Notes under the pieces: model-generated
Seen by the model: the letters and a program-made list of their open reading frames with translations, nothing else
Database searches by the model: none
Told to the model about the DNA's origin: nothing
In this document: positions 12,526 through 19,051 of the stretch, in pieces
Numbering within the stretch: the stretch's first letter is position 1
Layout of the letters: each line of letters opens with the position of its first letter
Origin: Acidobacteriota bacterium
GTDB lineage: Bacteria > Acidobacteriota > UBA6911 > JACQSX01
Assembly (NCBI GenBank): GCA_036507075.1
Contig: DASXQR010000010.1
Location: forward strand, 31,628 to 95,627
Length of the DNA stretch: 64,000 bases
Direction: 5' to 3'
Program-made: the position numbers and the translations under genes

Positions 12526-12719
12526 CCAAGAAAACTTTAACCGCCAAGATCGCCAAGAACGCTAAGAATGGCGCAAAGGACGGGGGCTGAAACTTGAAGG
12601 ATGAAGGCCATAAAAGCCGTGTCACGCAGCGGTACTGTGCCTTCATCCTTCAAGTTTCAGCCCCCGTCCTTTGCGCTCTCTTGGCGCTCTTGGCGATCTT
12701 GGCGGTTAAGTTTTCTTGG
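12526..12719. repeat. Long inverted-repeat (MITE/REPIN-like) element, copy 1
   Basis: Arms 12526-12608 and 12639-12719; homologous to 20571-20799. Confidence 0.9.
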
Positions 12720-13797
12720 CCGCATTCTCATACTCCTGTTGCAACTGCTCCATCAGACTGTCGAGTTTCTCCAGGAGTCGTTTCGGCTGCCTTGGTTTCC
12801 GTTTGTTGAGGGCGTAGGCGGCCATCAGCGGGAGCGCGATGGTGCAGTCCAGATAACAGACGACCGCGTCGGGCAGCCGATCGGGATCAATCTTCCCCCA
12901 GCTCACCGCTTCTCCCGGGGTCGCTCCCGACAGACCTCCCGTGTCCGCGCGGGCGTCGGTCACCTGTAGGAAGTAATCATGTCCCTTCTCTTCAATTCCA
13001 AGAACCTCCTGAATCTGAGGCTCAGTTTGCAATACGAAATTCTTGGGCGAACCACCGCCCAGAATGACTACGGCGCTTTTTCCACCGGAACGCTTCGCTC
13101 CCAGCACGATCGCCGCCGTCTGATTTACGTCGCGGTTGACATCGAACACGAGCTTGTTACCGCTGAGAGCTTTCGCAGCCACGTTCATGCCGATTGAGCT
13201 GTCACCCGGCGATGAGGTAAAGATCGGAACCGCGTGCGTGTAAGCTGCAGACAAAAGGGAGCGGCGGTCCAGTTTGAGCATCCGCTCGCGTTCCGCCATG
13301 TAGCGGCCGATCCGATGATGAAATTCAGCCGTGCTCATGGAAGACTGAAACTCCGGGGCTGAAATCACTTCACGGTAGAAGGCGTCGGTGGACAGCAGCA
13401 CGTCATATTCGAAAAAGATGTCATAAATTCGGACTACCCCTTCTTCACGCAGCACCACGTCGCTCACGTTAGGAGTTCCGCGATGCATTTTCAGCCCGAT
13501 GCCGAAGTGCGTGTCATGGTACAGATTGGCGCCCGTGCTTACAATCCAGTCTATGAAGCCCGCCTCAATCATCGGAATCAACGCGCTCCGCCCCAAGCCT
13601 GCGGGAGTAAGGGCCCCTGTGATGCCGACACCTACGGTCACGTCCGCCTCCAGCATCTTTTCGGCAAACAGATGGCATGCCTCGCGGAGCCGTGCCGCGT
13701 TGTAAGCCAGAAATGTCTGATCAATGAGCTCGACCAGAGACGTATCACCGCGGATGATCAGCGGATCAATGGGCTTGCCTGTCAGGTATTTGCTCAT
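12706..13797 (-). CDS. Deoxyhypusine synthase-like protein (probable homospermidine synthase)
   Basis: [38 protein letters not shown] with the catalytic Lys position retained. Confidence 0.9.
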
Positions 13798-13912
13798 GAT
13801 AAGGGAGTCCTCCAAGTTCCGAGCCGCCGGCGCTGCGGTGCAATCATATCTTGAACAGCTCGAATGTGGTGATCCCACCGGCAACGCATAAAAAATCCGA
13901 AAAAGCCGGGAC

Positions 13913-14138: not shown

Positions 14139-14492
14139 ATGAAAAGAATACGGTTCTGGGAACCGACAGGAAGATTGCGGCGCAAGCTGCTGGTGCTTGT
14201 GTTGACATCTTTCTTTGTGTCGGTTTTGACTGCAGAGTGTGTCCATCTCATCGACGAAACGATCGATCACGCCAGAGGTCACGCTTCAAGCGGCAGGCAG
14301 GGACCTGGCGGAGACTGGTCGCACCGCTGCCACAGTTGCCCCACCTCTCAGCCCCAGAGTCAGGGTCCGACACTGGATTTTCACATCGGGCTCAGCCCGA
14401 CGCCTCTCGAACGCCCCACAAACAATGGGGGTCGTGGCTCCCTCTCTCTTGTAAGGCTTCCCGCCAAGCGCGCACCGCCCGTTTCAGTCTGA
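14139..14492 (+). CDS. DUF2946/CruR/CutF-like leader protein with CxxC and C-terminal RAPP arrest motif
   Basis: Hydrophobic N-terminal segment, His-rich middle, CHSC, ends KRAPPVSV; directly upstream of metal-uptake genes. Confidence 0.7.
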   Translation: MKRIRFWEPTGRLRRKLLVLVLTSFFVSVLTAECVHLIDETIDHARGHASSGRQGPGGDWSHRCHSCPTSQPQSQGPTLDFHIGLSPTPLERPTNNGGRGSLSLVRLPAKRAPPVSV

Positions 14493-14504
14493 CGTATCCT
14501 GAGT

Positions 14505-14605
14505 GCAGGACAACGACAACGCGTCCTGCTTAATCCATGCCGACTCTTCGGGCCATACCAGGCGCCGGATGAAGTCGGCTCCTGAGTTTTCATTGGAGAA
14601 GCCGT
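14505..14605 (+). promoter_or_regulatory. Alternative RNA hairpins in the leader, one covering the RBS
   Basis: GCAGGAC/GTCCTGC (14505-14529). GCCGACT/AGTCGGC (14539-14579) competes with CGGCTCC (14576-14582) pairing to GGAGAAGCCG (14595-14604). Confidence 0.45.
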
Positions 14606-16006
14606 ATGTATCGTGTCAGACAGAAATTGGCATTTGCCATCATTTTCTTCTCTTCTCAGATGGTGTGGAGTCCAGCGGCGCCAGCCGGTCAGCAGCCGGC
14701 CGAGCCGCGGAAGAATGAAGCACGACAAGATTTGACCCCTTCAGACGCCGCCGCTTTGAATGTGATACGCACCCAGATAGAGGCAATGAAGGCGGATTAC
14801 GAAAAACGCATCAAGGACCTGGAGGACCAACTCGCACAGCTCCAATCCCGCCTGTCACAGCAACCGGCAAGCGGCGAAATGGTGCAGGAGCCGCAGGCCC
14901 CGCAACCCGTGGTGCAGTCGATTCCCGGCGCGCTCAATCCCGCCATTTCTGTGATCGGGAATTTCGTGGGGAGAGGCGACACTCAAAAAGTGTTCAACGA
15001 AGACGGGGACCGCCTCGACAATAAAATGAACCTGCGGGAAGGCGAAATCGACATGAGAGTGCCGATCGATCCTTACGCGGATGGAGTATTGATCACGTCT
15101 TTGGAATCGGAAACTCCCGGAGCCTTTTCCGTCGACGCTGAAGAAGCCTACGTGAACATAAAAAAGCTCCCGTTCCTGGACCGCACACCACTGGGGCTGA
15201 GATTGAAGGTGGGCCGTTTTCGACCTGCGTTCGGCAAGATAAACATCCTGCACACGCACGATCTTCCGCAGAGCTTTCGCCCGTTGCCGGTTGAAGAATT
15301 CATGGGTCCCAAAGGATTCAATCAGAACGGCATCTCGGCGAGTTTCTTCATTCCAACGCCATGGGACGCCAATTCCACGTTGGATGCAACAGTAGAATTC
15401 CTGGGCGGCGGCGACGTGGCCATCTCTCCGCAAAAGCAAGCGCGAAATGCCTACCTGGCGCACCTGCGATGGTTCCGGACCGCCCGCGACACACACAATT
15501 TTGAGCTCGGCCTTTCCAGCTACTATCACCCCCGAGGCAATGACATCCGTTCCGCCAATTTTAATGGCGTCGATTTTCTCTATCGCTGGAAGCCTTTGCG
15601 CCAGGGCGAATGGAAGTCATTCCTGCTGGGCGGTGAAATGATGTTTGCCGGTCGCGCTTACCCCGATGCGGGAGAACCGCCGGAGGTTGCCCGACTTTCC
15701 GATGAGATCCAGCCCGGATCCGGCAAGCCGTTCGGCTACACGGCATTCACTCAGTATCAGTTCGACCGACGGAAATACGCCGGTATTCGGTGGGACCAGA
15801 CCACCGCGCTTGTGAACCCCGGCTTGCGTCGCCGTGGGTTAACGCCGTACTTCTCATATTATTTCAGCGAGTTCCTGCGTTTCCGGCTGAACTACGAGCA
15901 CCGCTGGAGCGATTTCTCGACCGAGGACCGCCGAAACTCGGTATTTCTTGAGTTGAACTGGGTTTTCGGCGCCCATCCGCCCGAGCCGTTTTGGGTAAAC
16001 AAATGA
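14606..16006 (+). CDS. Outer-membrane beta-barrel/porin-like protein of metal-uptake clusters
   Basis: Signal peptide, coiled coil, NP.ISVIG, EEAY, G.F...FG.IN..HTH, SEF.R.RL.Y, FGAHP.E.F ending. Confidence 0.75.
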   Translation: MYRVRQKLAFAIIFFSSQMVWSPAAPAGQQPAEPRKNEARQDLTPSDAAALNVIRTQIEAMKADYEKRIKDLEDQLAQLQSRLSQQPASGEMVQEPQAPQPVVQSIPGALNPAISVIGNFVGRGDTQKVFNEDGDRLDNKMNLREGEIDMRVPIDPYADGVLITSLESETPGAFSVDAEEAYVNIKKLPFLDRTPLGLRLKVGRFRPAFGKINILHTHDLPQSFRPLPVEEFMGPKGFNQNGISASFFIPTPWDANSTLDATVEFLGGGDVAISPQKQARNAYLAHLRWFRTARDTHNFELGLSSYYHPRGNDIRSANFNGVDFLYRWKPLRQGEWKSFLLGGEMMFAGRAYPDAGEPPEVARLSDEIQPGSGKPFGYTAFTQYQFDRRKYAGIRWDQTTALVNPGLRRRGLTPYFSYYFSEFLRFRLNYEHRWSDFSTEDRRNSVFLELNWVFGAHPPEPFWVNK

Positions 16007-16060
16007 TCCCAAACAACATTTTTCGTTTGTAAACATCGGAACGCTTATCAGGTGGTGCAT

Positions 16061-17080
16061 ATGAAATTTTTTAGATACGGCTTGGTTTTGTTCCTTTCTG
16101 TTCTCAATTCAGGACCGGCATTCGGGGCGGCGCAAAAAGTGCGTGTGGTATGTACTCTTCCAACCCTGCGGGCACTGACCGAGGAAGTAGGGGGTAATCG
16201 CGTCGATGTGATCAGCCTTGCAAAGGGAGATCAGGATCCGCACTTTGTCACTCCTACCCCGGTTTTGATGAAAAAGACCCGGGAAGCGGATCTGTTCCTT
16301 GAAAACGGATTCTCGCTCGAATTATGGGCCGATGAGGTGGTCAACGGTTCCGGAAATTCGAAGATCTTTCGGGGTACGCCGGGTCGGATTATCGCCGGAA
16401 GGAGGATTTCGGCACTCGAAATTCCGTCCGTCATCTCCCGCGAGCTGGGTGACATCCATCCGCAGGGAAATCCACATGTCTGGCTCGATCCATTGCTGGC
16501 GAAAGTGGAAGCGGAAAACATCGCCGAGGCTCTCAAGTCAGCCGATCCGGCAGGGGCGAGCTATTATGACTCGCGGCTCGCCGATTTTGAAAGACGGATT
16601 GACCTGGCTCTATTTGGGTCGGAGCTTCTCAAGTCGGTGGGAATACAAAAACTCACTCGACTGGCGATGAGCGGCGAGCTGCATCGTTTCCTGGAGTCCA
16701 ACAAGCTTACCGGCCAGGCCGGGGGCTGGCTGAAAGCTGCCGAACCTCTTCGAGGAAAGAAAGCGTACGAGTTCCACAAGGTATGGGTCTATTTCGCCCG
16801 TACTTTTGGCCTGCAGTTGGCCGGCACGATCGAAGAGCGGCCGGGGATCCCTCCGGGACCGCAACACGTTCGGCAAGTGACCGAAAGAATAAAAGCGGAA
16901 AAGATCCCGCTTATTCTGGTGGATAATTTTTACGACGCCGCGCTGCCGCGAAACATCGCACGGCAAACAGGAGCAAGCGTTGTGGTGCTTCCCAATCAGG
17001 TGGATGGCGAGCCGGGGATCAAGACCTACTTTGATCTGATCGACCATATAATTCAGAAGATCGCGGCGGCGGTTAAGTAG
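16061..17080 (+). CDS. Metal ABC transporter substrate-binding protein (ZnuA/TroA family)
   Basis: QDPHF, GDIHPQGNPHVWLDP, FH..W.YFA, E.RPGIPP.P.H. Confidence 0.92.
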   Translation: MKFFRYGLVLFLSVLNSGPAFGAAQKVRVVCTLPTLRALTEEVGGNRVDVISLAKGDQDPHFVTPTPVLMKKTREADLFLENGFSLELWADEVVNGSGNSKIFRGTPGRIIAGRRISALEIPSVISRELGDIHPQGNPHVWLDPLLAKVEAENIAEALKSADPAGASYYDSRLADFERRIDLALFGSELLKSVGIQKLTRLAMSGELHRFLESNKLTGQAGGWLKAAEPLRGKKAYEFHKVWVYFARTFGLQLAGTIEERPGIPPGPQHVRQVTERIKAEKIPLILVDNFYDAALPRNIARQTGASVVVLPNQVDGEPGIKTYFDLIDHIIQKIAAAVK

Positions 17081-17085
17081 AAAGT

Positions 17086-17580
17086 TTGCGAGTTGCGGGT
17101 TTGCGGGTTGCGGGTTTGCGCGTTGCGGGTTTGCGCGTTTGCGGGTTTGCGCGTTGCGGGTTTGCGCGTTTGCGCGTTTGCGGGTTTGCGGGTTGCGGGT
17201 TGCGGGTTTGCGGGTTACCGGGTTGCGGGTTTGCGCGTTTGCGGATTTGCGGGTTTGCGGGTTACCGGGTTGCGGGTTTGCGCGTTGCGGGTTTGCGCGT
17301 TGCGGGTTTACGGGTTGCGAGTTTGTGGGTTGCGGGGTTTGCGGGCTCAAACGATTCAGAGCCAGTCGCCGGTTGAAAAGCAGAGATTAAAAATTATTAA
17401 AAATTAAAAATTCCGAAAATTTCGAATTTTCAATTTTGAACCCGAACCTAAAGCGAAACCCGAAACCTCATAATCCGGAAACCCACAACGTGGAACCCGT
17501 AACCCGTAAACTCGTAACCCGGAAACCCATAACCCGTAGACCTGGAACCCGTAACCCGGAAACCCGTAACTTGTAACTCA
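17086..17580. repeat. Inverted 7/8-bp tandem arrays flanking an AT-rich core
   Basis: (TTGCGGG/TTTGCGCG)n 17086-17346; AT-rich 17390-17440; (AACCCGT/AAACCCG)n 17440-17580. Confidence 0.9.
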
Positions 17581-17599
17581 AGCTGTAGCGCGAGGGCGC

Positions 17600-19051
17600 A
17601 TGCTCAGTTTTTCAGAACTAGCCTGGATGGTGACGCCGTTTCTGGCGTGTCTGGTGCTGTCCATCAACCATGTATATCTCGGTATTCACGTAATTGCCAG
17701 GAAGGTAATCTTCGTCGATCTGGCGCTGGCTCAAATCGCGGCTCTGGGCGCCACCTACGCCATTACGCTTGGATATGATGCCCGCGAAGACGCGCTTAGA
17801 GTTTCGCTCTTTTCCCTTGCCTTCACGTTTGCGGGGGCGGGCGCATTCGCCATCGCCCGCATGCGCAAGGAAAGAGTTCCACAGGAAGCATTCATCGGAA
17901 TCATTTATGCCGCAGCCTCCGCAGCAGCGATACTGATCCTTTCCAAATCCACCACCGGCGGTGAAGAACTCAAGCACATGCTGGTCGGCGATGTCCTGCT
18001 GGTGACAAACAAAGAAGTGCTTGAGATGGCTCTGCTGTACGCGGCTATCGGACTGTTTCACGTGATCTTCCGCCGGCAGTTCCTCACTATTTCTCTCGAC
18101 CCCGAGACTGCGGAGAGGAAGCTCAATATTCGATTCTGGGACATCCTGTTCTATATGTCCTTTGGCGTGGTGATTACCAAGTCGGTAGCGATCGTCGGCG
18201 TGCTTCTGGTGTTCTCTTACCTGGTGGTGCCGGCCGTCATAGCCCAGATGTGGAGCAATACGGTTCGCGGAAGACTTTTCCTGGGGTGGCTTGTGGCCAT
18301 CGTTGCCAGCACCTTCGGCATTCTCTGGTCGTTCCGGGCTGATTATCCGACCGGCCCAGCCGTGGTTGTAATGCTCTTCCTGTTTCTGGTGCTTTCCGGC
18401 GTTATCTATTATCTGCAGCATGCGCCGTCGAAGCTGCGCGCCGCCGGCAACGTTGCCGCGATTTCACTGGCTGCCGTGCTCTTCTTTGCGGTTCTCTCTC
18501 ATTTCCGCAAAACCGCTCCAGCGGAAGCCGGTCCGCGCCCGGGGGCGGTGGAGCTGTTGTTAAACGAGCTCAAGCACGATGATGAAGCGCGCCAACTGGA
18601 CGGCATTCGCCATTTGGCGGAAATGCGCGATCCCCGCATTGTCCCGGCTCTGGAAAATCTGTTAAAGCGCGCGCAGTCCGAGCAGGTCATCGAAGCCGCG
18701 GTGGATGCGCTGGCAAAGCAGGAAGATCCCCATGCCGCTCCGGCGCTGCGAGCGGCGGCACAAACTACTCATGACGATTTTCTGCAGCTTTCCATCGCAA
18801 GAGCCCAACTGGCGGTCGGGGACAAAGCGGGCTTTGAGACATTGATGCGGATTCTCAGCGGCCAGGGAGTAACCGTGGCGCGCCGGCAGGCCAACGAGTT
18901 AATCGAACGGTATGCCGGACGCTCATTCGGCTACAATGCCGACTATCCGGCGGCCCAGAATCGCGCAGCGCTGCAGCGAATCGAAGAATGGTGGAAAAGA
19001 GAAGGCAGCCGGCTGCGCTGGGACGCGAAAGCGAAGCGCTTCGTCGGCTAG
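17600..19051 (+). CDS. Metal ABC transporter permease (ZnuB/ABC-3 family) fused to C-terminal HEAT-repeat domain
   Basis: H.YLG.HV..R.VIFVDLALAQIAALG, QEA.IG..YA, GVLLVFSYL.VPA, PTGP; about 170-aa helical-repeat tail. Confidence 0.85.
   Translation: MLSFSELAWMVTPFLACLVLSINHVYLGIHVIARKVIFVDLALAQIAALGATYAITLGYDAREDALRVSLFSLAFTFAGAGAFAIARMRKERVPQEAFIGIIYAAASAAAILILSKSTTGGEELKHMLVGDVLLVTNKEVLEMALLYAAIGLFHVIFRRQFLTISLDPETAERKLNIRFWDILFYMSFGVVITKSVAIVGVLLVFSYLVVPAVIAQMWSNTVRGRLFLGWLVAIVASTFGILWSFRADYPTGPAVVVMLFLFLVLSGVIYYLQHAPSKLRAAGNVAAISLAAVLFFAVLSHFRKTAPAEAGPRPGAVELLLNELKHDDEARQLDGIRHLAEMRDPRIVPALENLLKRAQSEQVIEAAVDALAKQEDPHAAPALRAAAQTTHDDFLQLSIARAQLAVGDKAGFETLMRILSGQGVTVARRQANELIERYAGRSFGYNADYPAAQNRAALQRIEEWWKREGSRLRWDAKAKRFVG

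Follow-up and report, generated by a model that had tools for sequence, protein, structure and literature searches.

The stretch of DNA analysed here (the window, 64,000 nucleotides) carries a 117-codon open reading frame ahead of genes that resemble a metal-uptake operon, and the question it raises is whether this small frame encodes a ribosome-arrest leader that controls those genes and, if so, which metal it answers to. Coordinates refer to the plus strand of the window unless another strand or contig is named. The first-pass annotation had described a hydrophobic N-terminus, several histidines, a CHSC motif, RAPP three residues before the stop and a 113-bp gap to the next gene, and we re-found all of these features. 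The leader (P0001, 14139..14492), which we assign to the CruR/CutF type of upstream ORF from its reading frame and from family comparison, has a basic N-terminus followed by a hydrophobic stretch, L17-T31 (14187..14231), that sequence and hydropathy suggest is a signal peptide or signal anchor; its best 15-residue hydropathy is 2.6, and a value of at least 1.8 is reached in 46/46 of the leaders gathered below. Histidines lie at residues 36, 44, 48, 62, 65 and 82, and a further cysteine is C34. The CHSC motif (residues 64-67) forms part of a metal site, H62-R-C64-H-S-C67 (14322..14339), predicted from sequence and conservation. RAPP occupies residues 111-114, 43 residues beyond C67, and is followed by VSV and the stop; its codons (14469..14480) are the predicted arrest site, judging from our alignment A1 and from the toeprint of CruR (PMC12992588). 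The stop codon is separated by 113 nt from the next ATG, at 14606. The leader's own ATG at 14139 lacks a clear Shine-Dalgarno sequence, and an in-frame TTG at 14175 is an alternative start candidate.

We asked how often such an anatomy arises in the same genome, whose assembly is 95.7% complete and yields 39,635 stop-to-stop frames of at least 70 residues. Among frames of up to 260 residues, 54 carry R[AGS]PP within 10 residues of the stop, and only two of these also have a cysteine pair 41-52 residues upstream together with a hydrophobic segment: the leader and a paralogue of it. None of 248 frames with control motifs, in which A, K, S/T, G or L replaces the arginine, passes the same criteria, and 2 of 719 do so with the control R[AGS]P[not P]. 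Given 2/54 against 0/248, the anatomy goes beyond chance. Three other frames of this genome combine a hydrophobic segment with a terminal RGPP or RAPP and have no cysteine pair (G000:C88:19758-20144, C143:10724-11173 and C197:3435-3854, all on the minus strand); the last of these precedes a gene resembling cation/proton antiporters.

Two leaders studied elsewhere offer a comparison. CruR of Bordetella pertussis (Bp2923, a DUF2946 protein) arrests ribosomes at RAPP, and toeprinting places the P and A sites over the two proline codons (PMC12992588); the arrest is released by metal, and a variant with the spacer shortened by two residues (CruR-2) kept regulation (PMC9426467). The window leader shares with CruR its place as first gene of an uptake operon, the export-like N-terminus, the CxxC, RAPP three residues before the stop, a long intergenic region, a stretch in which C exceeds G, and a spacer of 43 residues (45 in CruR), within the one or two residues of the approximately 45 that define CruR-type upstream ORFs; of the other features of that definition it has the CxxC, the C-terminal RAPP and, on hydropathy only, the N-terminal hydrophobic segment. 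It is first in its operon, but the genes there are of a zinc-uptake rather than a copper-homeostasis kind. Unlike CruR, it heads a porin/ZnuA/ZnuB-type operon, probably with zinc in place of copper, has a predicted pairing with the initiation region of the next gene, alongside or replacing Rho, and has no DUF2946 score. With CutF of Rhodobacter capsulatus and the list of CutF-like proteins (PMC9973294; bioRxiv 10.1101/2025.02.05.636593) it shares a length below 150 residues, a signal-like N-terminus, a Cys/His site, PP within 15 residues of the end, a same-strand neighbour within 1000 nt, and a control proposed to act through mRNA structure over the start of the next gene. CutF differs in having CxxxC and in being stalled by copper to switch a detoxifying oxidase on, whereas an uptake operon such as the one in the window should go off with metal.

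The first-pass annotation had proposed an HMM search against DUF2946 as a check, and it came out negative: DUF2946 (PF11162, gathering cut-off 23.7 bits) does not match the leader even at E=1, and a wider search of Pfam and NCBIfam with the leader likewise gave no match. Against the 46 leaders the same model gives three weak matches (best E 0.008), and against 101 proteins (100 of 150 listed profile matches, plus the paralogue) it gives eight at E 0.01, two of them above the cut-off. The protein atlas places the leader with unnamed Acidobacteriota clusters and with one cluster in which 12% of members carry DUF2946. Although the leader stands outside Pfam DUF2946, its testable sequence features, apart from the type of target, suggest that it behaves as CruR and CutF do.

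Conservation of the leader was measured across 121 loci gathered via the porin or the binding protein of the operon. Duplicates (18), loci whose upstream sequence was too short (34) and loci lacking the porin (2) were set aside, leaving 67 that could be scored; in 48 of these, an R[AGS]PP-terminated frame lies upstream. Two (L009 and L015) were removed as having neither the hydrophobic segment nor the cysteines, so that an intact leader, the window's own included, is present in 46/67 loci and none is intact in 21/67. A hydrophobic N-terminus is present in 46/46 leaders, as is a cysteine between -50 and -43 from the arginine of RAPP; these eight positions hold 91 cysteines over the whole set, against 23 in the next 42. 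The pattern is CxxC in 26, CxC in 17 and a single cysteine in 3, and HRCH[SN]C recurs in L003, L004, L126 and L134. All of this holds although identity to the window's leader is just 12-38%. The R, P and P of RAPP are invariant in alignment A1 by selection of the sequences. In L002 (= L024) and L015 the leaders upstream of the porin appear broken by frameshifts, through decay or assembly error, and L002 ends in RAPL.

All 14 measurable pairs of homologues, none of which includes the window's own ORF, have dN/dS values of 0.13-0.37, which indicates purifying selection. A profile of the leader matches 778 proteins at E 0.001 and, within the class, has matches in 29 of 116 genomes; most of the operon's named relatives come from Acidobacteriota MAGs. 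That this ORF arose by chance within a long 5' region, a reading that the blank Pfam and NCBIfam searches and the weak ribosome-binding site might invite, is thus vanishingly improbable and is refuted by conservation and selection, with the cysteine spacing, the 778 profile matches and the own-genome background standing against it as well. The leader is a real, conserved leader gene of the CruR/CutF type. The earlier proposal of a signal/TM-CxxC-RAPP leader ahead of a metal-uptake operon, which was to be checked by looking for such an ORF in homologous operons, is therefore borne out, by its retention in 46/67 loci and by the purifying selection on its homologues.

A small exported metal chaperone, or a secretion monitor of the SecM kind, would also be a conserved gene, one with no metal sensing in cis. 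The hydrophobic N-terminus found in every leader, the exported or membrane location of the target proteins and the known role of RAPP peptides as Sec monitors would all suit such a reading, and the universal retention of the N-terminal signal does argue for some role of it. The distance from the cysteines to RAPP, however, is fixed across sequences only 12-38% identical, which fits sensing in cis and which a free chaperone would not need, and CutF itself was first taken as a chaperone and later proved to be a leader. We therefore regard a monitor or chaperone as very unlikely, and prefer a cis-acting leader.

The first gene behind the leader (14606..16006, with a Shine-Dalgarno region at 14595..14604 that includes GGAG at 14595-14598) has no family in Pfam or NCBIfam and gained no informative name from homologue searches, and a PDB sequence search with its profile returned coiled-coil noise only. 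An alignment-based structure model (103 sequences) reached a pLDDT of 90.6, against 35 for a single-sequence fold, and resembles MOMP, OprO and OmpC; on this model the product is an outer-membrane porin-fold barrel with an N-terminal coiled coil, and a homologous cluster in Vibrio campbellii marks it as an Omr-type protein. Next come a substrate-binding protein of the ZnuA family (16052..17080; Pfam and alignment), the only PF01297 gene of the genome, and an ABC-3, ZnuB-like permease fused to a C-terminal HEAT-repeat domain (17600..19051; Pfam and homology), its only strong PF00950 gene. The first-pass annotation had the leader wired to a ZnuA/ZnuB-type system; such genes do follow, while a porin stands directly behind the leader and the operon lacks an ATPase gene.

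Of the canonical ZnuABC parts, then, the operon supplies the binding protein and the permease, with no ATPase gene behind the latter. The same is seen elsewhere: a same-strand ABC ATPase lies downstream in one of 26 homologous loci with more than 5.2 kb of downstream sequence. Among 14 further regions, 13 have the full operon, one has an ATPase approximately 3.5 kb away, and one continues with a two-part ATPase that is presumably Uup-like. No ZnuC scores above cut-off in the window's own genome, the AztA model fails to separate cognate ATPases, and the ATPase best matched by BLAST belongs to another permease operon. A ZnuA/ZnuB-type pair without an ATPase gene in the operon is thus a trait of 16052-19051 and its homologous loci, and likewise of the Vibrio cluster, where the HEAT domain is absent.

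Several further features of the surroundings were recorded. The 520-nt gap between the binding-protein and permease genes is filled by two blocks of short-period tandem repeats (units of 8/15/23 nt and 7/15/37 nt; 17084-17345 and 17454-17577) that are roughly complementary to each other. A homospermidine-synthase-like gene (PRK00770) diverges from the operon at 12706-13854 on the minus strand. The same neighbourhood surrounds the operon in a second genome (G002), which suggests inheritance of the locus within the family; that genome also has a second copy of the porin family (L184:7628-8749, G002:C12, locus L019), standing without binding protein, permease or leader. An Rfam scan of the window found no riboswitch, just a piece of group II intron (domain match RF00029, 47818-47890, minus strand). 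A promoter scan returned 0 sites, and terminator-like matches fall inside the ORF or upstream.

We next consider which metal is sensed. The porin has a single match among 72,556 records of the plasmid collection, a Vibrio campbellii replicon, and all three operon genes match a cluster there (L195) in order (tblastn E 3e-14, 7e-25 and 3e-13), the porin profile reaching E 1e-37. That cluster has no leader and no ATPase gene, and two TGTTAT-n3-ATAACA palindromes lie upstream of it. We take these palindromes to resemble Zur boxes. We equate L195 with the omr-znuA2-znuB2 cluster that PMC9817125 names in V. campbellii, a match based on species and gene order rather than on locus tags. The V. parahaemolyticus counterpart (VP_RS21430-21420) is there reported as induced 1034-, 543- and 283-fold under zinc limitation, and its ZnuA homologue has been tied to growth at low zinc (PMC3794297). 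The window operon shares with the Vibrio cluster three homologous genes in the same order and the missing ATPase gene, and differs in having a leader where the Vibrio cluster has Zur-like palindromes, and a HEAT domain on its permease.

The binding protein itself and a second leader in the same genome also point to zinc. Manganese-type binding proteins have glutamate at the position of the third ligand. Here H64, H142 and H242 are invariant (66/66, 65/65 and 65/65), and H242, the third ligand, aligns with the histidine in FHPSWAYF of the zinc protein 2ov1, although manganese and zinc proteins are tied as the best PDB matches (3.8e-18 vs 4.4e-18). The paralogous leader (G000:C146:62714-63046, plus strand, within L130:5714-8483; 38% identity, E 9e-20) ends in RAPP, has HRCHNC in place of HRCHSC and lies 230 nt ahead of a TonB-dependent receptor, in which a frameshift produces two overlapping frames. 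ZnuD is the best match of this receptor in the PDB (E 5e-24, against 1e-4 for OprC) and in NCBIfam too, and a genome of the same family repeats the pairing. Since the same leader subfamily heads a ZnuD-like TonB-dependent receptor, the contrast drawn by the first-pass annotation, in which the leader served a ZnuA/ZnuB-type system rather than a TonB receptor, fails. A reverse-transcriptase-like ORF sits directly behind the receptor on the opposite strand.

The homology to a zinc-starvation cluster of Vibrio, the ZnuD-linked paralogue and the three-histidine binding protein together make zinc the best-supported signal, and a likely one, as judged from sequence. The suggestion that a metal other than copper might be sensed is accordingly upheld as likely. 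An arrest switch for copper, cobalt, nickel or manganese, or for the redox state of the cysteines, would be in keeping with several other facts. Both family members tested so far sense copper; in PMC9426467 the CxxC of CruR, at such a spacing, senses copper and the effect of zinc is just moderate; nickel or cobalt sensing has been suggested for histidine-rich CutF-like leaders; the CxC and single-cysteine patterns make up 17/46 and 3/46 of our leaders; and manganese proteins score like zinc proteins against the binding protein. When 28 leader loci across the class were read, 14 headed this porin, in part because of how the profile was built, and among 13 other downstream genes that were scanned ZnuD was the best match in 4 and not in 9. 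None of those 13, however, matched the copper receptor model TIGR01778 at E 1e-9, and the three lines of evidence for zinc tell against any other signal, so that we consider another metal or a redox signal quite unlikely.

We think it about an even chance that the leader senses zinc through ribosome arrest and thereby switches the three genes behind it, for porin, binding protein and permease. At low zinc, the ribosome would stall once the two RAPP proline codons occupied the P and A sites, the state seen for CruR. Halted there, it would shield 14482-14493 and unwind a helix formed with the beginning of the porin gene, allowing the uptake genes to be translated. Zinc, when present, would bind the HRCHSC site and the histidines upstream of it as they leave the tunnel, and the folding driven by zinc would pull the chain free, perhaps aided by a membrane-engaged N-terminus; the export signal is dispensable in CruR (PMC9426467) and essential in CutF (bioRxiv 10.1101/2025.02.05.636593). 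Once released, the ribosome would reach termination and the helix would re-form, lowering expression of the operon. Being on at low zinc and off with zinc, such a switch would act in the direction that suits an importer.

RNA folding provides the candidate for the helix, and predicts that a stalled ribosome would open it. The 5' arm (14482..14493) is formed by the last codons of the leader, which a ribosome stalled at RAPP would cover, and the 3' arm (14615..14626) by porin nucleotides +10 to +21, in codons 4-7; 11 of 12 pairs are Watson-Crick, and 4 of 3000 shuffles did as well, in a comparison made post hoc. The computed cost of opening the porin initiation region is 15.2 kcal/mol when the leader is free and 8.8 when it is stalled, whereas 12 shuffles gave a difference of at most 5.5 kcal/mol; a narrower target (-15 to +6) reverses the result (-3.3 kcal/mol), and 28% of non-cognate pairs form a duplex as good as the window's. 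A stable hairpin is also predicted in the intergenic region (14539..14579), overlapping a possible anti-SD arm at 14576-14582. In a set of 35 non-redundant loci (42 after excluding 4 with uncertain porin starts, then collapsed), the duplex between stall site and initiation region averages -17.8 kcal/mol for cognate pairs and -15.9 +/- 0.5 for permuted ones (p 1.5e-4, uncorrected for kinship and GC). The difference in opening cost between free and stalled states exceeds 2 kcal/mol in 20/35 loci and is 2 or less in 15/35, and 25/35 exceed their own shuffle mean; in the two closest relatives of the window it is -1.4 and +1.7 kcal/mol. The first proline codon of RAPP is CCU in 27/46 leaders, against 50/274 proline codons elsewhere in the leaders and 209/1320 in the porin genes; the window's own pair, CCG CCC, lies outside the anti-SD type. 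No conserved intergenic RNA sequence was found among five close loci.

Metal-released arrest could instead act on transcription: as in cruR-bfrG, Rho would terminate it in the gap behind the leader, in which case the helix would be incidental. By base composition C exceeds G across 14334..14567, a possible Rho-utilisation region as in cruR, and does so around the stall site in 35/35 leaders; this genome has a Rho gene; the long gap of 113 nt recalls the 162 nt of cruR; and folding predicts no translational switch for the ZnuD paralogue (5.6 vs 6.9), whose gap is 230 nt. RAPP and proline-rich codons are, however, C-rich by themselves, and the CCU bias at the first proline and the stronger cognate pairing favour pairing with the initiation region. 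We judge a purely Rho-dependent output somewhat unlikely, and the two outputs would be able to coexist.

The translational reading can be set against Zur-type regulation, given the Zur-like boxes in Vibrio. The Vibrio palindrome has one match with two mismatches in the window, far from the operon and at chance level, and the genome's sole Fur-family match reaches 82 bits as Fur and 45 as Zur. This gene (L124:1435-2472, G000:C17), which lies behind folE, also encodes a fused ferritin/rubrerythrin-like domain, and in most relatives the top Fur match sits in frames of similar length (approximately 330-430 residues). We place at a little under even the chance that this acidobacterial lineage runs zinc uptake without a Zur box, with paralogous HRCH[SN]C/RAPP leaders in control of two targets, the porin/ZnuA2/ZnuB2 operon that has no ATPase gene and the ZnuD-like receptor. 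If so, the lineage would have a small translational zinc regulon, and zinc sensing by an arrest peptide would be demonstrated for the first time.

The class of mechanism is known, and an association with zinc is present in published source data. The source data 4B of PMC12992588 include RAPP leaders of approximately 100 residues that share with ours a hydrophobic N-terminus, a His/Cys cluster, a terminal RAPP and a place upstream of zinc-uptake genes; the main text leaves these undiscussed, the word 'zinc' occurring 0 times. The same source data list 137 RAPP against 2 AAPP for DUF2796, and 9 rows for the receptor. DUF2607 (ZrgD), the first gene of the Zur-regulated zrg zinc operon of Vibrio, is given as of unknown function in Table 1 of PMC9817125, and ends in RAPP with a His/Cys cluster in supplementary file 8 of PMC12992588. 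It is likely a leader of the same kind, and if our reading of the locus holds, ZrgD would be recast as a leader instead of a transporter subunit. The window leader and the other leaders of our set differ from those in the source data in giving no score with DUF2607 (PF10795, cut-off 24 bits); a scan of the own genome with this model gave no score either, and the controls were equally blank.

In the literature within our search, which leaves most subscription papers outside, we found no paper testing or proposing a zinc-sensing RAPP leader or linking RAPP stalling to zinc. What is new here is the ZnuD-linked paralogue and the Vibrio cluster in which Zur-like boxes stand in place of a leader. 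Roy et al. (PMC9426467) point out that copper and zinc lack a described riboswitch, a part that protein leaders may play. With copper the only signal of the leaders tested so far, the locus offers a test of retuning one arrest scaffold to zinc: one genome holds two paralogous leaders, each ahead of a zinc-type target, and the homologous operon of Vibrio, which carries Zur-like boxes, is there for comparison. It also bears on arrest release outside Sec/YidC monitors, a matter called open in PMC12992588.

The loci of the operon that lack a leader were compared separately. A broader idea, that the leader replaces Zur across the Acidobacteriota, was rejected: no shared palindrome was found upstream of the leaderless loci, and Fur-family counts overlap, at 1-3 in 13 genomes with a leader and 1-5 in 6 without an intact one. 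An Rfam scan of 18 loci without an intact leader found no riboswitch. Three leaderless porin loci share an upstream stretch of approximately 170 nt (L008:1285-1461, L100:3170-3352 and L104:1535-1716) that has no Rfam match, and the 5' part of which is predicted to pair with the Shine-Dalgarno region. Its motif has one strong match in 401 genomes, the one from which it was drawn, and the stretch is possibly an RNA switch of narrow range.
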